Of a stretch of DNA of 64,000 nt, positions 50,301 to 63,900 are shown piece by piece (position 1 is the stretch's first letter; every line of letters starts with the position of its first letter). The stretch covers positions 143,716,001-143,780,000 of the forward strand of contig OZ260661.1 of assembly GCA_965285935.1 (NCBI GenBank), written 5' to 3'. A program made the translations under genes and the position numbers. A model generated the notes under the pieces. That model was not told the DNA's origin. It searched no databases and worked only from the letters and a program-made list of their open reading frames with translations. This DNA is from Ophelia neglecta. Lineage: Eukaryota.

Positions 50301-51776
50301 CCAAGAATATAAGATGTTACAGTCTGGTAACTGTGTGTCACCCAGATCAGAGTTGGCTCAGTTTGTTCCCAGGCTAGACAGTGATGGCTGCATTCGCAGT
50401 CAAACTCGAATGGAAAAGGCATATGAGGTGCCTTGGAGTACTCGCTTTCCATTGATTCTTCCTCGGCATGGGGTTCTAACAAAGCAGATGATTATGCACA
50501 TTCACGAGAGCAATGGCCACATTGGAGTAACACACACATTATGCGTTATTCAGGGAAGTGTATTGTGCAATTGCTGCCAGGGAGACTGTGAAATCCGTTA
50601 TTTATTTGTGTATGTTCTGCCATTTGCGGAAGAAACGCCCTGCAGAGCAACAGATGGCTCCGTTACCAATGCAGAGAGTCGAACTCACCTACCAACCATT
50701 CAAATACACCGCCATTGATTATGGAGGTCCGATACTTAATAAACAAGGCAGAGGGAAGACCAGAACAAAGAGATGGTTTTGTGTATATACCTGTTTGAGT
50801 GTGAGAGCTATACACATTGAACTTGCATATGATTTATCAACTGAGGGTTTTCTCCAAACCTTCAGTAGGTTTTGTGCCAGAAGAGGTGTGCCTACGGAAA
50901 TCCACAGTGATAATGGTAGTAATTTTGTTGGGGCACAAAGAGAGCTAGGAAAACTTATCAGATCCTTGGACACTCAAACCATACAACACACTACAGCCAG
51001 TAAAGGTGTGGTATGGAAATTCCTTCCCTCAGGAGCTCCACGCATGGGCGGCTCCCATGAGGTAATGATTAGGGCAGTGAAACGATCAATGAACAAAGTT
51101 CTCAGTCAGGCAGAAGTTTCAGATGATGAACTTCATACTGCCCTTGTAATCATTGAGGGCTTAGTTAACACTCGGCCAGTGACATATCAGAACTCGTGCA
51201 TTGATGAGCCCACTCCAATAACTCCAGGACATTTTCTGCATGGGAATGTGGCTACCGAGATACCAGTGCCCAATGCAGAAAACCTCAGGGAAAACAGTAG
51301 ACATCGGTGGCGGAGGGTGCAGGAAATAGTTCGCCATTGCTGGAGGAGATGGCTGATGGAATGGAGTTCCTGCACTAGGACCCAGATCAAAGTGTTGGAA
51401 AGAACATTCAAACTTTCGTGTAGGAGACATCGTTATGGTTCTTGATGCAACCAACCAACGAGGGTGTTGGCCGTTGGCTCGAGTAGAAGCATTACATCGT
51501 GGGTCGGACGGCAAGGTCCAAGTGGTGGATATCAAGCAAAAGCCCAAAGTATTCAGGAGGCCTTTAGTTAAATTAACTTAGTTAATGCTTGGTCGAAAAA
51601 AAATAACACATCCCTAAACAGGGAAGTTGTGGGCTGATGGATGTGAGTTGTAGGCCAGGCAGGCTTGGGCGATTCTGTGTATTTTTGACAGTGCGATATT
51701 GGCAATAAACACCCGAAATTTAACAAAACAAATGGCTTTATCAATTGCGCAGAGGCGCAGGGCAAATATATCGTCA
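47382..51776 (+). mobile_element. Degenerate BEL/Pao element with protease and RT deleted
   Basis: Gag (LPVFPGG..WWSTFEALVD, Cys/His knuckles) at 47480-49420; RNase H (FSDASEEAYG, WTDS, NPAD) at 49465-49905; integrase (IDYGGP, SDNGSNF, WPLARV) at 50558-51580; no YVDD region. Confidence 0.92.
47433..47449 (+). promoter_or_regulatory. Primer-binding site, initiator tRNA-Met type
   Basis: TGGTAGCAGAGCGTAGT lies just after ...GAATCA and before gag; TGGTAGCAGAG is complementary to the 3' end of animal tRNAiMet. Confidence 0.8.
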
Positions 51777-52089
51777 AATTAGGGAGTAGGAGGCAATATA
51801 TATCTAAAGGGGCGCTAGGGGAGGGAGACCTAAAAGGGGGTAAGGGGACAATATACTCCTAATTGGGGACCAGGGGAGGGAGCCCTTAAAGGGGTTAAAG
51901 GGGACAATATATACTTAGAATATATTGAATAATGTTTTGGATGGTCAGTTGGCGGATTCCACTTTGTTTTCTTTTACAAATAAGAAACCTTGGTTAACCA
52001 TTGCCACTAACATGCTTATTAAGATTAAAGACTCGTTATTTGTATGGCTATGAGATCTCCTACACCTTTATATATCAAATCCTACCGTG

Positions 52090-52315: not shown

Positions 52316-52639
52316 ATGGGTATTGGTATTATAATAGTAAAGACGATTTCATATGTGCACCAACTATTATCAAAACAGCAGCCAAAACGTCATTTAATAA
52401 TAAGCTCTAAGCTTTCGCTGTCAATTGTGCAATTATTTATTACACTTTATAATATTAATGTTTTGTGTATAAGGTATTATCCCGGGTGATACTGCGCATG
52501 CCTAAGCGCGCGCAATACAAATCCATTCCTGACTCAGCTGGAAAACTGGTCAGACGTGCCAGCGACGAGGCTCCTGTCTTAGACGTTTTCTCCACAACGG
52601 ATATAGGTAATATCACTTTCGTTGTTATTCAGCATGCCC

Positions 52640-52950
52640 GGGGGGCATTGCTGCTAAGTCCCTGGGGGACAAAAACATTGCCGGGGGCAATGTATTAGAT
52701 AAATATAGTAATTTTAAACTCAAGTCCCTGGGGGACAAAGACATTGCAGGGGGCAATGTATTAGATAAATATAGTAATTTTAAACTCAAGTCCCTGGGGG
52801 ACAAAGACATTGCCGGGGGCAATGTATTAGATAAATATAGTATTTTAAACTCAAGTCCCTGGGGGACAAAGACATTGCCGGGGGCAATGTATTAATCTAA
52901 TTAATTTGTTTAAGTCCCTGGGGGACAAAAGCTTTGCCCGGGGCAACGTT
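52640..52950. repeat. ~65-bp tandem repeat (about 4.5 copies) in the 5' region of the YR element
   Basis: Unit aagtccctgggggacaaagacattgccgggggcaatgtattagataaatatagtaattttaaactc. Confidence 0.95.
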
Positions 52951-54112
52951 TGTAATAAAATTCCTAGACAAAGCTTTACTAAGCTTTATTTATTTAAATA
53001 AACTAGTTCGATGTGTTATCGTATTTTAGCGTATATATCACCCCAAGTGTTATATTCTTGTACCTTATAATTAGGAGTCGGTTACAGGAATTGTGGTCCC
53101 ATTTGGTTTTATGTACCCAGATCTCTTTATGTTTGCAATTAATCCCAGTTATTGGTCAATATGAATGCTAAAGAGCTACGGCAGTGGACATCTAGATGCA
53201 TTATAGAAAGTGGCACTTTCGAACATGTATATTTGCTTAGCAAAACCCCAAGGCAAATCCAGTTAGCCGGGTATTCACAGACTTAATAAAACCACCTTTT
53301 CTATGTTCTGTGATGGCATTTGTCGTGTACAAAATTGTCGCTTTTATTGTTGAAATAATCGGGTCAGAAGTGACTGTGTGGTTTTGCCTGGTCAGCCTTT
53401 GTTACAAAATGTAAAAGCTTCACTTAACAGCTTTCACTCGGTAGGATTTTGGCGATATAGCTTATGTAACAGCAGGGTATGTTAACGAGGCATGACCTAC
53501 AGTTTATTTAAGACTTTAGATGCAGGTTGGCCAGGCTAGGCTAGGCCAAGGCTTGGCTCTACAATTCTTCTTGGCTACACAAATAGTCAACCCTTCTAGT
53601 TGACCACAAATAACTGTTGGTTACATTTAGCACATGCCCTCCTTTCCAGCTTTCTAGCCTTTTGGAAACATGTTAGAAATTCAGGTTGCAGTTTCTTGAT
53701 TTAAGGGCCTTGCATTTGGTTTAACTTTGACCTGTCATTGACTTTTGGCCTATATTGACAAAGGGATATAAAGAGTATTGATGCTTTATATTTCTAACGT
53801 TATACACATATAATTGTATATTAACATAATGTTACAGATATTTGATAAATAAAACCATTCTATTACATTGAGAACGTGCAGTAGGGGCGACCCACATTCT
53901 GGATCTTTCCTATTCTTCTGAAATATTTTCTTAACTGTTTTGTTAATTATTAATATTAACTGATCGGTGCTTGGCCATTTCTATTTTGGTGTAATTAAGG
54001 GTCCTTTTATCAAAACTATATTTTCAATACGTTGCATATCTGCTACGTAATAGATATGTTAACTTTTTCGATTTTATGGAAGGTATTTTACTTTTAATTT
54101 CTTTTCCGCAGG

Positions 54113-55353
54113 ATGGCTGCTGTAATAATCTTGAAAAAAGACCATAGCCTAGTGGGAAAAAGTCCATTCGCTGTAGTGATGGCGCTGAAAGAATTTGGGG
54201 GCATACTTCCCACTCCCTTGGCGAGGCTGAAACGCAGTCACCCGTTGGAAAATTACTCGTCTAATGATCTCATAGAGAATTTGGAGGGTATTATGGGTAT
54301 TCCGGCGACGGAAATCCTGACCTTGGCTCAGGTAGAGGGAGCGTCTGATCCCACACAAGTGCCGACAGAAAAGCTCCAATATGTGCTACATACTGCTATT
54401 GTCGAAGCAAATAGGGTAGGCCAACCTCAAGGAGTTACCCTGGTGAAAGAGAAGTAGGATACCCCACATCAAGAAGTTACTAGGAAAGAACCTACAAATG
54501 TATCTAACAAGGTAAAATTTTATTCTGCTTATACGAGAGTATGCTGTGAACGATTCGTAATAGGCCTATATATCTTTTAAGTCCACGCAGTTATTCTGTT
54601 ACATGTGAATCCCTTTGCATGAGACCGTTAAGTCGTCTTATTTAGTACATTTTAGGTGGGCCTATTTTATCACAATGGGCACTTCATTCTTTTCAGAGGA
54701 AAGACAGAGACGATGATTTAGAATCCAGACTAAAGTTGCTAGAACAGAAAATGGAACACGAGTCTGGGAGTGAAGTTGACCTGGCCTTACAACAGGTGAG
54801 GAGGTTACAGGGGTCAAGAGCCCTCATGCAGCCACACTTGGTAATCTCTAGTGTTGAGAATCTGGTCGAAGTAGCCCTACGGGTAAATCATCCCCAAGTT
54901 GAATATTTCAAGCGAGCTCTCCTGGAATTAAAAAAACACGAGGATGCAGAGGGCCTCGGACAGCTGCTAACTCAACTTTTTGGATCGCCCGAAGATAAAA
55001 AAGTTGCTACAGCGGTAACCGCCTGGCTTAAGGTGAAGAAAGCAGAAGAGGCGACTGGGCATTCCAAAAAAGATCAGCTAGAGGAAAGTGCTAAACCATA
55101 TCGGCACCCAGCACCAATGCCTCAGCCAGGCATGTTTCAAATGCCAGGGTTCCCACCTTTTCCAGACTACTTTCCACAACCCTACCCCGCTTATTACGGT
55201 GGCTTCGGACCCAGACGCGGCAGAGGTTCCTTTAGGCGCGGTAGAAGGGACCCCGCCCAGAGAATGGTGGCCAGATGTTATGGGTGCGACTCTGCAGATC
55301 ATAGGGTTGTGGACTGCCCTGTCATAAAAGCAATGAAAATTGAAAAAAAGTAG
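54113..55353 (+). CDS. Gag-like protein of the YR retrotransposon, predicted spliced (leader exon from 54113; exon 54697-55353)
   Basis: RG-rich segment and CCHC knuckle CYGCDSADHRVVDC; acceptor TTTTCAG|54697 is in frame; phase-0 donors at 54416, 54443 or 54512 (using 54512 includes the TAG at 54455). Confidence 0.75.
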
Positions 55354-55904
55354 ATATTGGAATATATATATAGACCTCATATTATAGAATCGACATCTAG
55401 AGAATTTAGACCATTGAATTTACTGTACGACCAACTTCGCCTATTAAATTAGATTCTTGCATTTCTTAGCATTTCGTCAGTCTTCTTTATCAGCACGCAA
55501 AAGGATCGTATATTTGAATATACCCAACTTAGACGTCATAGTTACCTTATTGGTAGTAAATACTATGTGGGATACGTATTAAAAAATTGGACTATAATGA
55601 GAAGTTCATAGTTTAAAGAATCGGCATCTTTGTTTAGTTATATTCTATTATATTATATTCAAATTTGATAGTCCTAGAATGTTTTTTGGAAACTAATTTA
55701 ATTTCTGACCCAATTGCTACTACTTCTAAAATTTAAAGTAGTAAATATTTGAGGCAAGAATACCTGCCCACCCCGGCAAGTTTCCGCCCCAACCAAAAGG
55801 TACCTAAAACACCTTAGTGGAGGCTATCCTTCACGCTGGTTGGAAGCTGGAGCCTTGTTGGGAATTCAACCACACGGAGTTATCATATCTTAATCATTTT
55901 GTAG

Positions 55905-58151
55905 GTATCAGGCAATGGTGATTACGTAACCTCGGATGAAAAACCGTCCCCAGAACCAACGTTCGACCCACAAAAGGCAGCTAAAAGGGTAAGAACAGCT
56001 CCGGTGTGGGTGGATTCCCAGGGAAAACGGCTCCAGCCCCAACCAGATACGCCTCCAACAGCCGAGCAAGTGGCCACGCCTAATACAGACACACCTAGTA
56101 TTTCAATTTTGGCATTCAGGGATCCTGAAAACTTCATTGCCGGCGAACTTCACAACCAAGCGGCGGAATGGGAAAAAATCCTCCCCCAAACTGAAGTGGG
56201 CAAGGAAGCATTAGATTGGATTTTGCGTGGGGTGTGCATTCAAAATTACTTTCAACCCTATCGAGGAAAATTTAGAGGGAAACAGTACAATGCTGAGTTG
56301 CCACAAAAATATTGCCAACCTAATAACGCCTCCTGTGTGGGGCATGAAAGTTTCATTTCCGACACCTTGCAAGAGTGGATCGAGTGCGGAGCAATTCAGC
56401 TATTAGGGAAAGTCGGGGAAGTACAACCACCACTTATGGTCATGCCATTGACTGTCGAACCATCGAAACCCAGACTTTGCCATGATGAACGTTTCCTGAA
56501 CTTATGGATAAAAGACCTCCCTTTCAATCTCGATACCCTTAAAGATGTTCCTAGAATTGTTCACAAAAACTTTTTTCTCACCTCCCTCGATCACAAATCC
56601 GGTTATCAACATGTCAGGCTTAACCCAGAAAGCTACAAATACTTCGGCATTTGTTGGGAAGGGTACTATATGGTATATGTGACTCCTCCATTTGGTTTCA
56701 AAGCAAGTTGCTACATCTATCACACCCTGACCGGTTTAGTGGCCTCATATGGCAGAGAATTGGCAGTCCCCACTTTGGCTTATATAGATGACTCTTTGAA
56801 CTCGCAGTTCGCCAACTCTTTGAAAGATAGGCTAGATAATTACCAGAATGCTGCAAATTTAAACGAGGCTCTGAGGTCTCTGTATATTATGTGTCAATTA
56901 TGGACAAGGCTAGGTTATACCATTTCATTGAAGAAGAGCGTTCTTATCCCGACTCAAATCATCCGCTTTCTGGGTCTGCTCACAGACAGCACTCTTGAAG
57001 CTTTTATCCTCCCACAAGACAAAAAAGAGTCATTTGCCACTCTTAGAGAAGCTATCCTCAAAAACCGCACAGTAGATATGAAGTCTTTGCAGAGACTTCA
57101 AGGAAAGTGTATATCGTTGACACTAGCTGTACCTGGAGCAAGGCTTTACATATCTGAAATGTCAAAAGCCATTTCATTGGCAGCTAAGAATAGCAGGTGT
57201 ATATCATTGGCAGGTGGCTTGAGAGAAGAAATTGAGCACTGGCGTTTTGTCGACACCTGGCAAGGTTGCGTCCCTTGGAGACAGGAAATGCACCTGCAAA
57301 TGGCAATGGCCACGGATGCTTCTAACTTTAAGTGGGGAGCTATGTTCTTGGATGTAAAAGGCCATCCAAATGAAGAGATAGGAGATTTTTGGCCCCAGGA
57401 AGATGATCGCCCTATACACCTAAAAGAAGCCAGTGCCCTTCTACAGGCCCTCCGGTCGGTCAGGAAGAATATTCAAGATCACAGAGTGGATGCATTTGTA
57501 GATAATATGGCAGTCCTGTCCGCGTGGAATGGACAGAAAGCCAAGGATGCCAGGCTAACAAGTCTTATAAAGAAAATTTTTTGTTTCACTCAACTGGCCA
57601 ACTTAGATCTCCGCCTGCACTTTGTACCTAGCCAGGAGAATCCCGCGGATGCACCATCAAGAAAACTCAGTTGGTTGGATGCCATGCTGGCGCCGGAAAT
57701 TTGGGAATTAGTAGATGGCAGATTTGGACCCCACTCAGTAGATTTGATGGCCTTAGATAGTAATGCTATGCAAAGATGTGGAAAACCTCTCAAGCACTTT
57801 ACCCCTTACCCCACTCCTTTGTCTGATGGGGTAAACGTATTCTCACAAGACATCTCCAAAGAACAGGCGCCATATGTATACCCACCCCTTAGCTTGGTGG
57901 GACCTCTCTTGAAGTTTCTCTGTGAGAGCAATATTCAGGCATGCACTTTTGTAGTCTTTGATGTGGTCCCAAGGCCATATTGGTGGCCCCTGCTGAAACA
58001 ACACGTGTCCGACACTTTGATACTCGGCGAGCAGGGAGAAAAGGGAGTTCTTTTGGTACCTACAAAATCTGGTTATGTTCGAGATACCTTTGGTCTTCGG
58101 TTTCCCCTGATTGCATTCAAACTTGTTTTTGGAGCGGTTTCAACTCAATAG
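55905..58151 (+). CDS. RT, RNase H and N6-adenine-methyltransferase-like protein
   Basis: SLDHKSGYQHV, PFG, AYIDD, FLG; RNase H ATDAS, HLKE, VDN, NPADAPSR; MT-like VDLMA..FSQD..YVYPP. The frame opens right after TTTTGTAG. Confidence 0.93.
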   Translation, partial: VSGNGDYVTSDEKPSPEPTFDPQKAAKRVRTAPVWVDSQGKRLQPQPDTPPTAEQVATPNTDTPSISILAFRDPENFIAGELHNQAAEWEKILPQTEVGKEALDWILRGVCIQNYFQPYRGKFRGKQYNAELPQKYCQPNNASCVGHESFISDTLQEWIECGAIQLLGKVGEVQPPLMVMPLTVEPSKPRLCHDERFLNLWIKDLPFNLDTLKDVPRIVHKNFFLTSLDHKSGYQHVRLNPESYKYFGICWEGYYMVYVTPPFGFKASCYIYHTLTGLVASYGRELAVPTLAYIDDSLNSQFANSLKDRLDNYQNAANLNEALRSLYIMCQLWTRLGYTISLKKSVLIPTQIIRFLGLLTDSTLEAFILPQDKKESFATLREAILKNRTVDMKSLQRLQGKCISLTLAVPGARLYISEMSKAISLAAKNSRCISLAGGLREEIEHWRFVDTWQGCVPWRQEMHLQMAMATDASNFKWGAMFLDVKGHPNEEIGDFWPQEDDRPIHLKEASALLQALRSVRKNIQDHRVDAFVDNMAVLSAWNGQKAKDARLTSLIKKIFCFTQLANLDLRLHFVPSQENPADAPSRKLSWLDAMLAPEIWELVDGRFGPHSVDLMALDSNAMQRCGKPLKHFTPYPTPLSDGVNVFSQDISKEQAPYVYPPLSLVGPLLKFLCESNIQACTFVVFDVVPRPYWWPLLKQHVSDTLILGEQGEKGVLLVPTKSGYVRDTFGLRFPLIAFKLVFGAVSTQ

Positions 58152-58185
58152 ACTATGCATAATTAGTGTGTTCTCATTGTTGCAG

Positions 58186-59406
58186 GGCAATGAAAGTCAT
58201 GACTGCGAGGATGTAGATGTCGCCCCACTGGATTTCCGTCTTCGGGAAATTGAGAGGAAAGCAAAGTCCACACCCTATGAGCGTAAAAAAGAAGCATTAG
58301 CCAAAGAACTGGACAGTTTTTTGCATCGCTTACCAGGCAAACCAACGCTCAAAACTATGGATGACAGAGACCTCAGACGGTTTTTAGTATTCAAAGACGG
58401 CAAGGGGAAGACTGTTGTCCATACAACCTTGTGCCCTCTATTAGGACAGCGGGATCCAGGGGACTGTGGGTGCCCAAGGAGGCTTACAGCGGGTACTGTT
58501 ATATCCATGGTAGGTCAGCTTAAGGCTTTTCTACAAAGGCTCGGTAGGGGTAGTGCGTGGGATGAGCTCAAAACAGAAGGCAACCCCGCTTACGCCTCCT
58601 CCGTTTCAGAATATGTAAGAGTAATACAGAAAGAGCATGCAATCGCTCACGTATCTCCCAAACAGGCGAAACCATTATTTGTTGAAAAATTGGAAAAAGT
58701 GTGTGACTATTTAAAACGTGAGAGCGAATGCGTATGTTCATCGGCAAAAGATAAGTTTATGTATCTACGAGATAGAGCCTTTATGACAGTCCAATTTTTT
58801 GCCGGCGACCGAGCCAGTGATCTCTGCAAGACGTTGGCGCAAGAGATCAAGAGGTTACCTGATGGTACCGGCTTTGTAGTAAACCACACGCAAGGGAAAA
58901 CGGCCAGCTCTTCTTCGCCGAGGGTTGTGTACATAAAGAAATGCGAGAATAGAAAAATCTGTCCTGTAACTAGCCTTGAAGACTATGTCTCGGCAGCATC
59001 ACGAATGGGTGTTGATTTGAAGACCGGGTACATATTTCGAAAAACAAATAAACATGGACAGGTTTTGCAGTTCCCAATAACGTATGATGCAGCTCATGAT
59101 CAACTTAAGAAATACTTGCGTCAATTAGGTGAATATGACGGGGAAACCCCCCACAGCCTTAGAGGGGGTTGTGCTGTTACCATGCTCCTTACAGGAGCAG
59201 CAGAGACTGTCGACGAAGCTCAAGCTCACATTGGATGGAAATCAACTACCATGCCAGACAGGTATGCACGTGCGAAAGGGGCTCAAACTTTGAGAGCCAG
59301 TGAAAAGTTGAGGAAAGCCATAGATAACGAGTCAAGCGTTACGGCCAAGGATGCTAGTAAATTATTTGGCGGTCTTGAGTACCATGAACTAGATAATGCC
59401 TTTTAA
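58186..59406 (+). CDS. Tyrosine recombinase
   Basis: Catalytic set R (GDRASDL), K (GKT), HxxR (PHSLRGG), H/W (HIGW) and Y (DRYA) all present; acceptor TTGTTGCAG|58186 is in frame. Confidence 0.93.
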   Translation, partial: GNESHDCEDVDVAPLDFRLREIERKAKSTPYERKKEALAKELDSFLHRLPGKPTLKTMDDRDLRRFLVFKDGKGKTVVHTTLCPLLGQRDPGDCGCPRRLTAGTVISMVGQLKAFLQRLGRGSAWDELKTEGNPAYASSVSEYVRVIQKEHAIAHVSPKQAKPLFVEKLEKVCDYLKRESECVCSSAKDKFMYLRDRAFMTVQFFAGDRASDLCKTLAQEIKRLPDGTGFVVNHTQGKTASSSSPRVVYIKKCENRKICPVTSLEDYVSAASRMGVDLKTGYIFRKTNKHGQVLQFPITYDAAHDQLKKYLRQLGEYDGETPHSLRGGCAVTMLLTGAAETVDEAQAHIGWKSTTMPDRYARAKGAQTLRASEKLRKAIDNESSVTAKDASKLFGGLEYHELDNAF

Positions 59407-60130
59407 TAATGATTTATTTCTTGGTCTGAAGGAGAAATTACAATAGAAAAACACCGACACCGTTATACACTTAACAACTAATGACTGTCATTTAAAAATA
59501 TGGATTTATGTAAACTAATTGTATATATTTTATTCAGAGGTTGTAATAATGTTGAATGAAAATAAAATTTGGTCATTCCAGTTTTCCCTTAGCTGTTTGT
59601 AATAAGGTTTGGGAGGGGAATAACTCTAGCTGTTGTTTCCAAATGGAAAAACTGGGAAAAGCGACGTTCAAACCTCCAATCCTGTTGACTTCCCCCACAC
59701 CTTAAACCAAGAGCCAAGGCAGGGGCGGTATCACCCGGGATGTTATTATATCCCGGGTAATACTGCGCATGCCTAAGCGCGCGCAATACAAATCCATTCC
59801 TGACTCAGCTGGGGAGAAGTGAAGTCGGGTAGAGCAGAGAGTGTGTTTTAAGTTTAATTATAGTGTATTAACGCCAACAAAATTTAGCCTGGAGAAAGTT
59901 ACCCACCCAACACCCCACCCGGTCAAGGTATATGCCACTGCTTTGGCCCTCCAGTCCTGTTGACTTCCCCCACACCTTAAACCAAGAGCCAAGGCAGGGG
60001 CGGTATCACCCGGGATGTTATTATATTATGATTTTAAGAACTATTTGTAGAACCCGTTTTTCATTTAAATAATATATGTTATATTATATTAAGTGACATC
60101 TTTGGAACGTTGCCTGCAATTATTATTAAT

Positions 60131-60338
60131 TATTATCAAAACAGCAGCCAAAACGTCATTTAATAATAAGCTCTAAGCTTTCGCTGTCAATTGTGCAATT
60201 ATTTATTACACTTTATAATATTAATGTTATGTGTTTAAGGTATTATTATGATTTTAAGAACTATTTGTAGAACACGTTTTTCATTTAGATAATATATGTT
60301 ATAATATATTAAGTGACATCTTTGGAACGTTGCCTGCA
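60131..60338. repeat. Uninterrupted copy of the ~210-bp sequence into which the YR element inserted
   Basis: Matches 52365-52480 joined to 60027-60118 with only a few substitutions. Confidence 0.95.
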
Positions 60339-60754
60339 TGAAGCATTATCTTTTTGAAGCATTCGGTATAAGATAAAAGGAGGTTCCCATTTCTTATATA
60401 CATGTTCATTAGTGACGTTAAGCCGGGTGGTACGATTATAATGATTAACCTTTAAATGCATTTATTAATATTTATTTCCAGGAAATAGCTAAATTACCAG
60501 ATTTGACTTCAAATATGTGTATAAAATGTTTATTTTGATCATATTGTTTTTCGAGAAAATTGGATAAATATTGCGTAGCAGGACAAAAGTCGGCATATGT
60601 TCATATCTCAAGCATAAGTAGTATTACCTAGCAGTCTTCTGGTGCCGATCACTGCTATACAATACACATACTACTCGATAGGATACACAAAGTGGGGGCT
60701 CTATTTCTTTCACGTAGACACCGGAACGTCATTTAAGAAAGTGATAATAATAGT

Positions 60755-60929
60755 AATAACATGATATTGACGGGTGTTACGCTACTTCAGTGTCCCTCCA
60801 TAAATTATTAGCAGCCCTTCATAGTCATAGCACCCTCGGCTACGCCTCGGGCGCTATGACTATGGCGGGCTGCTAATAATTTATGTCGGGCCACTGATAT
60901 AGCGTAACGCCCTGCAAAATCATGTTATT
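60755..60929. mobile_element. ~175-bp palindromic (fold-back) element
   Basis: Arms aataacatgat..gggtgttacgcta..ataaattattagcagccc..catagtcatagc and their reverse complement flank a central cctcggctacgcctcggg. Confidence 0.8.
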
Positions 60930-63900
60930 GGTATATTGTCCATCATTATACTTTCATAATCGGCATCATCGCTTTGCTTTGTATTCTGGGGTTGCTCTCT
61001 GTGCGGTACAGCATAATCATCGCTCACTGAGTTAATTTCAGCTTTGCTTTTAGCACCTGCATTTTTGGATTTGTCGACCTCAGCATTCACATGATATTCT
61101 GTATTTTCAAGAGCCACAGTTACATCCTGATACTCAGTATCAACAGATTCGTGGTTACTGTAAACGTTAGAGCCGTTTGTCAGGGTGTGTGAAGTGTGAA
61201 CGCCATAGCATGTATTGTTAGAAACAGTATAGCTTGGCCCTTCTGATCAATTTTTTCCTATTCTGTGGATGTAAGCAGAACTTATAATAGTAAGTTATGT
61301 ATTTAATTTAACAAATTGCATATTTGCATCAATAAGTAGAGTAACAGTATCAGCTTTATTTAATTTTTCTGGGTGGCCCTCTTGGTAGCGTCCATTGGGA
61401 CTTAGTGGAGGTCTCCCAACCAAACTAATCTCTCGATTGCAAATACTTATTTTGTTAATAATTGTCTTTGTGTAGCATTATGGTTGGAATATATATATTT
61501 TTTGCATGTTATTATTGATTTGGTTGAATAAAAGTTCAGTTCAGTTCAGTTCAGTACTATCTCCAAAGTAGGTGCATATTGCTTAAATCTCTACCTTTGT
61601 TTCCGAAGAACAAAGATCAACACAATGACTAGTAGTGCAGCGACAATGACTACTACTCCTACTCCTAGACCAATAAAGATGCCTTGCCCTGGAAGTTTAT
61701 AGTTGTTTACTGCTTTCATCATTTGAGTTGAAAATTAATTCTATGATTATTATCTTATCGATGTATAAAATGCCGCCTTGGATTGTAATTCATAAGGTGT
61801 CGGAAACAAAATAGCCTTTAAATGATTATTGTTCATATAATATATACATTATTTATCGAAACAAAAACCAAGCCTTTTTTAGGAAATCGTGTGATATGTT
61901 TAAGTGGCCACTCTAACATGCCTTCACAACTGACAATGTCTTGGTATAATCTTTTAAAAGTTATATCTATTAGATAACGTACCCTTGTTCTGAGCCTGGG
62001 AAGTGGTAGTTACATCAGTATTTTTCTTTGAAATCGAGGTGGTAAAACGTAAACTAGAGGTTAGGCGTTCGTCCTCTGTGGTTGTAAGATGGTTAGTCAA
62101 TTCGGTCGCCGTAAAACTAAAGGCTATAAACAGAAATTGTGAAATGCCGAAACGAGATTGGGAAACGGAACAGACTAGGTGTCATGCATGGTAATTGTAG
62201 TATACTAGTAATGTTATATGGCCGCTTGGCTTGTATTAGTGTGTCTGTATGATTGGCATTTAAAATAGGGTCAATAATAGAATTCCTATTGTTGTTTACA
62301 CAATTTATATAACGCTGAATCAATAAAACATACCCTTAAGCAGGTTACAATCAATAAAGTAGGTTATAAAAAAGTGATAACAAATAATGAATCAATGGAC
62401 AGAGTAAGAAGCCTGCACGCTCATAGTGTCTCCTGGCATTTGAAAGCCAGATGGTCATAGTGTCTCCTGGCATTTGAAAGCCAGATGGTCATAGTGTCTC
62501 CTGGCATTTGAAAGCTAGCTGGTCATAATGTCTCCCGGCCTTTGAAAGCTAGCTGGTCATAATGTCTCCCGGCCTTTGAAAGCTAGCTGGTCATAATGTC
62601 TCCCGGCCTTTGAAAGCCAGATGGTCATAATGTCTCCCGGCCTTTGAAAGCCAGATGGTCATAATGTCTCCTGGCATATGAAAGCCAGATGGTCATAGTG
62701 TCTCCTGGCATTTGAAAGCCAGATGGTCATAATGTCTCCTGCCTTTGAAAGCTAGCTGGTCATAATGTCTCCTGGCATTTGAAAGCCAGATGGTCATAAT
62801 GTCTCCTGCCTTTGAAAGCCAGCTGGTCATAATGTCTCCTGCCTTTGAAAGCCAGATGGTCATAATGTCTCCCAGCCTTTGAAAGCTAGCTGGTCATAAT
62901 GTCTCCCGGCCTTTGAAAGCCAGATGGTCATAATGTCTCCCGGCCTTTGAAAGCCAGATGGTCATAATATCTCCCGGCCTTTGAAAGCTAGTTGGTCATA
63001 ATGTCACCTGGCATTTGAAAGCCAGATGGTCATAATGTCTCCCGGCCTTTGAAAGCTAGCTGGTCATAATGTCTCCTGGCCTTTGAAAGCTAGATGGTCA
63101 TAATGTCTCCTGCCTTTGAAACCAGATGGTCATAATGTCTCCTGCCTTTGAAAGCCAGATGGTCATAATGTCTCCTGCCTTTGAAAGCCAGATGGTCATA
63201 ATGTCTCCTGGCATTTGAAAGCCAGATGGTCATAATGTCTCCTGCCTTTGAAAGCCAGATGGTCATAATGTCTCCTGCCTTTGAAAGCCAGATGGTCATA
63301 ATGTCTCCTGCCTTTGAAAGCCAGATGGTCATAATGTCTCCTGCCTTTGAAAGCCAGATGGTTATAATGTCTCCTGGCATTTGACCGAGTATAGTTACAC
63401 CCCATATAATTCAAGCCATTTAGCAAATAGTCTAGACTCAGAATAACTGCATGGTATTTATATAGATGTGGAGAAAATCTATATTTCTATTCAATTTGAA
63501 TACTTAGTTTATCATTTTATTTTAAGTGCACTGAACTATACTGCAGGCTTTTAGCAAATCTTAAAGGAATTTATCCTATTCGCCACAGGAAACCAATGTA
63601 CATTCCACAGTGCGGATGTGATGACGTTTAAAGGCATCTTCGACTAGACAAGATACTGAATTTTCAAAATCGGAAAACGCCCTATTACCCTGAAAGGCCC
63701 ACGAGAAACCCCTACCTTAGTCCATTCGGATAATGATTAGTGTTTTGAAGGCACTGTATGTCATGTAAAGACCGATACGGTAAAAGTACAATTAAGGCCT
63801 CTACAAACAACAGAAAAAAAGAACCAAAGCCGCCTACGTCTATCATCAGGTGTCCCTGTTGTCTTGAACGCATCTACTTTCTCCTCCGATTTCGTAGCGT

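Follow-up and report, generated by a model that had tools for sequence, protein, structure and literature searches.

Does a tyrosine recombinase (YR) retrotransposon need a short sequence in common with its target in order to insert, and which strand is exchanged when it does so? These questions are raised by a locus in Ophelia neglecta, within a window of 64,000 nucleotides (nt) that represents the whole stretch of DNA analysed (assembly GCA_965285935.1, contig OZ260661.1, positions 143,716,001 to 143,780,000, forward strand). Here, a full-length element of 7546 bp sits in one copy of a tandemly duplicated host unit, with the other copy empty; judged by its sequence, it is a young PAT-like DIRS-order member of the ALOG-YR type. 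DIRS-order integration is published as recombination through an identical 3-bp sequence (PMC3266345), a mode described in 2020 as being without experimental test (PMC7192593). In line with this, the original prediction for the locus proposed conservative recombination with crossover in a TAT core and no target site duplication (TSD), probably favouring (TAT)n sites. We surveyed 24 insertion events of two families and observed precise, one-sided insertion without homology. The exchange of a single strand, subsequently fixed by replication, is probably how this precise insertion without duplication or required match comes about.

The locus is organised as follows:

52365..52477, + strand: left portion of the 208-bp host unit that is filled; the target's spacer forms the last 6 bases of this portion
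52478..60023, + strand: full-length YR retrotransposon, 7546 bp, in the order A1, open reading frames (ORFs), B1, A2, B2; it begins TATCCC and terminates GGGATGTTATTA
60024..60118, + strand: right part of the filled host unit; its initial TAT is a coincidence (see below)
60119..60130, + strand: AT-only join linking the two host units
60131..60338, + strand: empty duplicate of the host unit, with the insertion-equivalent site at 60243/60244

The left, internal, right and empty-site junctions all read as originally described, with TAT at 52478-52480, 59749-59751, 60024-60026 and 60244-60246. What the internal B1/A2 junction has in common with the empty unit is exactly TAT, with 0 bases further left. 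Joined together, the left and right flanks align gap-free to 60131-60338, differing at 5 of 208 positions, and a contig from run X1 spans the empty site (60176-60304) with 0 differences and continues into the unit-to-unit join. The read evidence consists of contigs from three runs with one sample label in one study, which may be the assembly's own source. Alignment and contigs both bear out an element in one copy of a tandem duplication beside an empty second copy. The observation itself is confirmed: the junctions add up as stated, the duplicate is empty and there is no TSD. The interpretation placed on it is, as a whole, partly supported.

Insertion without a required sequence match

In this genome, the family of the window element is represented by 11 left ends and 9 right ends, and the other copies are 99.0-99.5% identical to the window element in the core. 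A sister family (family 2), with a YR approximately 70% identical, is also present. Flanks of the genomic copies, which the original prediction had proposed to collect, were obtained for 24 events over both families: 14 with both ends, five with the left end only and five with the right end only. The event table leaves out L153, a segmental duplicate of L154 with a deviant right spacer, and two repeats of the C1:18.58 right end.

At ten two-sided sites including that in the window, the flanks rejoin exactly when compared with empty homologues, with neither loss nor duplication. Conservative insertion without TSD therefore holds at all ten sites that rejoin an empty homologue. Flanks continue directly in 11/11 empty loci for C12:69.14 (with the same first base in 10) and in 12/12 for C8:35.37. 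They rejoin in 2/2 empty loci for C1:10.99, in 4/5 anchored loci for C1:2.68 (seven examined) and in 3/3 aligned loci for C1:19.00, as well as in 5/5 each for C2:59.49 and C15, where substitutions lie further out. The flanks of an insertion in a 5S gene rejoin as in the intact gene, and those of C5:106.19 as in the neighbouring array unit. Three paired sites stand outside the verified ten. Empty homologues were looked for and none found for C7:25.67 and C5:24.19, and only degenerate local repeats were found as homologues of C2:23.50. The C2:56.86 copy is a composite of two partial copies within a tandem array.

These empty sites show that both families insert without a required sequence match. 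The numbers of bases shared between target and element junction at the ten verified sites are 3, 1, 1, 0, 0, 2, 2, 0, 0 and 0, i.e., none at five of them, and no base is shared at 8 of the 16 fully known targets. Mean sharing over those 16 targets (0.81 bases) is close to the local null (0.88 bases; 3069 of 5000 nulls at least as high). Three or more shared bases are expected with a probability of 0.09 per site, and of 0.79 for at least one site in 16. All left ends start with TAT, which represents the element's own first three bases, and right flanks begin with TAT at 2 of 19 ends (0.58 expected, P = 0.11). Because sharing is at chance level over the targets, the TAT match in the window is a local coincidence. 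Neither a crossover in a TAT core nor a preference for (TAT)n sites survives this comparison. More broadly, the survey cautions that annotating ends from a single locus mistakes chance matches for cores.

This result bears directly on the textbook DIRS route, in which a double-stranded circle recombines through the 3-bp TAT junction core with an identical genomic triplet. Such recombination fits the window locus exactly and is the published model (PMC3266345; PMC7192593). However, across the survey the donor junction and its targets do not generally agree in a 3-bp core, and the verified sites with zero matches refute this route for both families; we regard it as almost certainly wrong for them. 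A variant with a TA core and loss of two element bases was rejected, given that the empty homologues of C12:69.14, C8:35.37, C1:10.99 and C1:2.68 lack TA. The original prediction had also stated that the target lacks the element's cccggg arms. This is literally true of the window site, but the targets show a weak arm-like bias, with C at +4 in 11/19, C at +5 in 10/19 and G at -11 in 13/19, together with A/T at +2 in 18/19.

Fate of the spacer and a possible strand exchange

The repeats at the right of the element contain the joined ends that define its spacer:

59673..59748, + strand: B1 repeat; its final 6 bases, 59743-59748, are the element's spacer
59717..59774, no strand assigned: joined-ends dyad of 25-nt imperfect arms flanking the spacer, predicted to be hairpin-capable; crossover at 59748/59749
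59749..59812, + strand: A2 repeat
59948..60023, + strand: B2 repeat and right end; the element's spacer is kept at 60018-60023

In both families, the joined ends form a dyad around the 6-nt spacer TTATTA, with different arm sequences. The element's spacer is kept at 19/19 right junctions and at 0/19 left junctions, where there are three to six mismatches each. All 24 events in the two families are one-sided (p = 1.2e-7 against a 50:50 expectation). Such a one-way outcome is unexpected for a two-strand exchange, because segregating heteroduplexes would give mirror images in half of the cases. The targets themselves show dyad symmetry only in a 6-nt register, with its centre in the 6 bases to the left of the insertion point: 33 of 80 are paired, a value reached by 7/2000 local nulls and 15/2000 arm-permuted nulls, in the best of nine registers tried. 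A 7-nt target spacer, prompted by G at -11 and C at +4, was unsupported (25/80 paired; 349/2000 nulls).

Metagenome relatives were consistent with this pattern. We screened 30 of 48 loci and read 11 repeat pairs, seven of which have a readable right end; of the others, two ended at contig edges and two were unclear. Each of these seven relatives has its own spacer, different from the others, and retains it at the right end, and six of the seven share the same dyad register, with cuts placed by eye from the dyad and from B1/B2 divergence to within up to two bases. A metagenome scan with a single protein found nothing.

It is established that a YR cut frees a 5'-OH on the spacer side (see also the Fig. 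1 legend of PMC5871717). Given this chemistry, we infer from the position of the crossover at the spacer's right edge that the antisense strand is the one exchanged. The antisense strand would be the first complementary DNA (cDNA) strand made by the reverse transcriptase (RT), and replication would resolve the single exchange and fix this strand in the chromosome. The donor may be end-joined cDNA, either as a folded single strand or as a double-stranded circle that halts after one exchange; in a folded donor, the unpaired 6-nt loop would need no partner, which would explain independence from homology. DIRS-1 cDNA is reported to be single-stranded, antisense and mostly linear (PMC7192593), and the present findings link single-stranded antisense cDNA of this kind to integration. 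A bolder version is possible, though we lean against it: ALOG-type PAT-like elements may integrate single-stranded first-strand cDNA directly, through a hairpin opened by the YR at its 6-nt loop, into a weakly palindromic target without homology, with replication completing the process. If true, this would be a eukaryotic route resembling that of integrons and SEs, and, for this clade at least, the DIRS order's 3-bp-core model would be incorrect.

Several points weigh against single-strand exchange as outlined here. The evidence comes entirely from fixed genomic products. The sense strand is predicted to fold as well as or better than the antisense strand (z of -3.85 sense and -1.03 antisense in family 2; -2.57 and -2.65 in family 1), which weakens a folded antisense donor. 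The predicted junction hairpin puts the cut at the edge of the loop, unlike the integron attC site. The target dyad is modest, at about 0.03 and 0.07 after allowing for nine registers, and at -3, one of 24 positions tested, T equals the element's base in 12/19 targets (P = 0.004), which may be a trace of spacer matching. At an eleventh site with homologues, C1:12.14 of family 2, the flanks fail to rejoin, and the survey of that family is under-sampled, with 40 of 49 candidates scored. Finally, linear forms predominated in DIRS-1 cDNA, and its circle junction could not be amplified (PMC7192593).

Other routes to the same products differ in how well they account for the one-sided outcome. In a Tn916-like exchange, both strand pairs would be exchanged without homology, leaving a 6-bp heteroduplex at each end that strand-directed repair would always settle in favour of the antisense version. 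For Tn1549, it is established that YR integration proceeds without homology and with a melted crossover region (PMC5871717), and a dyad with a 6-nt spacer occurs here in both donor and target. However, simple segregation predicts both outcomes where 24/24 events show one, and fully biased repair must be assumed at both ends; we consider this route unlikely. A topoisomerase-like end joining would dispense with a joined-ends donor altogether: after a single nick of the target by the YR, the phosphotyrosine is resolved by the 5'-OH end of linear cDNA, which gives the right junction, and either a second transfer or host ligation attaches the other end. The mostly linear state of DIRS-1 cDNA (PMC7192593) would suit this, as would the C2:55.89 copy, which looks as if its two ends were handled separately. 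Yet the internal B1/A2 junction matches both ends base for base, the dyad is kept in relatives with differing arm sequences, and 19/19 left ends are precise, unlike repair joins, which makes end joining quite unlikely.

The folding predictions would instead favour single exchange of the sense strand, with the YR cutting a sense hairpin at the loop's 3' edge and the likeness of targets to TATCCC right of the cut reflecting partial pairing rather than recognition by protein. Folding of the sense strand is more stable in family 2 and, via G-T pairs, in most relatives. Against this, identity on that side of the cut stays at the background level at +1 to +3 (6, 9 and 9 of 19), with +4 and +5 the only positions where it is high, and the symmetry of the targets is centred on the 6 bases left of the cut. 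We therefore judge sense-strand exchange decidedly unlikely.

The element, its host unit and other copies

Left of the B1 repeat, the element contains the following features:

52478..52541, + strand: A1 repeat, 63/64 identical to A2
52656..52946, + strand: GC-rich 66-bp tandem repeat of approximately 4.6 copies, in the 5' non-coding part
54098..55353, + strand: two open frames (54098-54457 and 54646-55353), probable gag-like region with a weak zinc knuckle
55905..58151, + strand: RT-RNase H ORF, 748 amino acids, with a conserved C-terminal domain
58111..59406, + strand: YR ORF, 431 amino acids, with ALOG and phage-integrase domains

The element encodes a YR and no DDE integrase alongside RT and RNase H. 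Its YR ORF matches Phage_integrase (Pfam, 6.3e-8), has the conserved R, K, H-x-x-R and Y columns, and carries an ALOG domain N-terminal to the catalytic domain (PF04852, E = 8.4e-16; PDB 8p5q, E = 2.1e-7). In the RT ORF, the matches to RVT_1 (4.7e-5) and RT_RNaseH (0.003) are both under the curated cut-off, and the fold matches RTs. A candidate Gag zinc finger, a trait of the Pat1 subgroup, is a weak zf-CCHC match (E = 0.23). RNase H is followed by an extra domain of approximately 160 amino acids that is conserved in 59 relatives. It has no Pfam or PHROG match and none in PDB among the matches listed, and an Atlas neighbour (score 0.91) has Dam in 14% of its members. This is probably, on weak support, the methylase-like domain of DIRS elements; the presence of a conserved domain after RNase H disfavours membership of Ngaro. 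The A1-B1-A2-B2 repeats are split and direct, a PAT-like trait. A DIRS1-like arrangement, with inverted terminal repeats and an internal complementary region, was rejected, as the inverted arms are only 25 nt long. PAT-like (Pat1) elements belong to the DIRS order (PMC4157794), and ALOG-domain DIRS1-type retroposons have been described (PMC3537659). The assignment of the element to the PAT-like DIRS order follows from the combination of split direct repeats with a gag-like region, RT-RNase H and an ALOG-domain YR. Alignments suggest that the copy number of the 66-bp repeat varies among element copies.

The duplication of the host unit is real and haplotype-specific. A contig of run X2, which represents another haplotype, carries a single empty unit, as does the paralogue L158, 136 kb away on the assembly contig that holds the window. 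An assembly artefact, which the original prediction had named as a possible refutation, finds no support given the X1 contig that bridges the empty site; the haplotype with two empty units that it had suggested looking for did not appear, X2 showing one. A joint from 60304 to 60085 was not accepted as such a haplotype, since it crosses 34 identical bases. Each host unit has two derived changes relative to L158. The 208-bp duplicate is unlikely to be a long same-chromatid TSD made at insertion, with five differences against 1.15 expected from the divergence of the nearest copy (P = 0.007); it may instead originate from an older duplication or from exchange between alleles. A comparable case is the copy at C2:55.89 Mb (L107, L157 and L023), where the left end is precise, the right end is truncated 138 bp early, and approximately 110 bp of the copy's own left flank is duplicated after the truncated end, joined at microhomology. 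Duplications of this kind may be by-products that arise when a one-strand intermediate is resolved, or may reflect later exchanges involving a filled and an empty allele.

Some other copies have distinctive settings or structures. Both families are inserted in 5S ribosomal RNA/U1 small nuclear RNA repeats on C5, at 106.19 and 106.55 Mb (L147, L008 and L027), including one insertion within a 5S gene, and further copies sit in 1.7-kb and 3-kb tandem arrays. In family 2, one copy has a repeated B-A unit with three B ends (L150, 8618-9296) and another has its 2.7-kb 3' end present three times (L151-L152). L153 and L154 (C1:11.22 and 12.14 Mb) represent a duplicated family-2 insertion; in empty homologues, what comes after the left flank does not match the right flank of this insertion. 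Adjacent to the locus in the window are a very high-copy fold-back repeat at 60379-60937, resembling miniature inverted-repeat transposable elements (arms 60750-60840 and 60844-60934, 82% complementary; summed contig depth >20,000 in runs X1 and X3), an open frame at 50531-51445 with an rve integrase core (E = 4.4e-5), which represents a remnant of a long terminal repeat-type element left of the target, and a G-rich 55-bp tandem repeat of 2.2 copies at 51794-51914.

Comparison with known systems

The element type is already known; its mode of integration differs from the one published. PAT-like and ALOG-domain DIRS1-type elements (PMC4157794, PMC3537659) share the A1-B1-A2-B2 repeats, the gag-like region, RT-RNase H, the probable methylase-like domain, the ALOG YR and the lack of a TSD. 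Whereas integration as published for the order works through an identical 3-bp core (PMC3266345), the present element needs none and the fate of its spacer is one-sided. We found no report of homology-free or strand-biased DIRS or PAT integration in the literature searched, which lay outside the original Goodwin and Poulter papers, subscription papers, Repbase and supplements, where earlier notice is possible.

Among other YR systems, Tn916 and Tn1549 likewise insert without homology in a short crossover region (PMC5871717). Tn1549, however, depends on one terminal base pair, and a second exchange resolves its Holliday junction, whereas the present element has no conserved position beside the cut and a one-sided outcome. 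Cryptons are also eukaryotic YR elements without a true TSD (bioRxiv 10.1101/2022.05.23.493040; PMC13465315); CryptonF-1_cRei targets a near-identical 5-bp motif, in contrast to the lack of a shared motif at the crossover here. For integrons, replication is proven to resolve a single exchange (PMC3458562), and both integron attC x attI recombination and the CTX phage involve such one-strand exchange, with a folded single-stranded donor possible (PMC3458562, PMC3442271). By comparison, the cut in the present element lies at the edge of the predicted hairpin loop, and a single-stranded donor is hypothetical. We found no attC-like or dif-like two-site stem in the element's junction.

[quoted passage not shown] In these elements, too, the right junction receives the donor spacer and the left one the target's central 6 bp, a fate interpreted as one-strand recombination and proposed as such for SEs (PMC10214605). 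They are DNA transposons with several proteins, a spacer copied from the donor's flank and few targets (PMC10214605), whereas the present element has a single YR, passes through an RNA intermediate, has its spacer set by the internal B1/A2 junction and inserts at dispersed targets. Neither the gene sets of these elements (intA-tfp-intB-srap or tnpABC) nor their DNA-only cycle is found here, where one YR is accompanied by an RT; the element works like SE/Tn554 elements and is not a member of them. Young copies with empty homologous sites thus reveal two animal families that need no core and show an SE/Tn554-like one-sided spacer signature. For a cleavage assay, these findings supply the exact substrates and predict which strand would be cut, and they point to a single-protein, scarless, low-specificity eukaryotic integrase.

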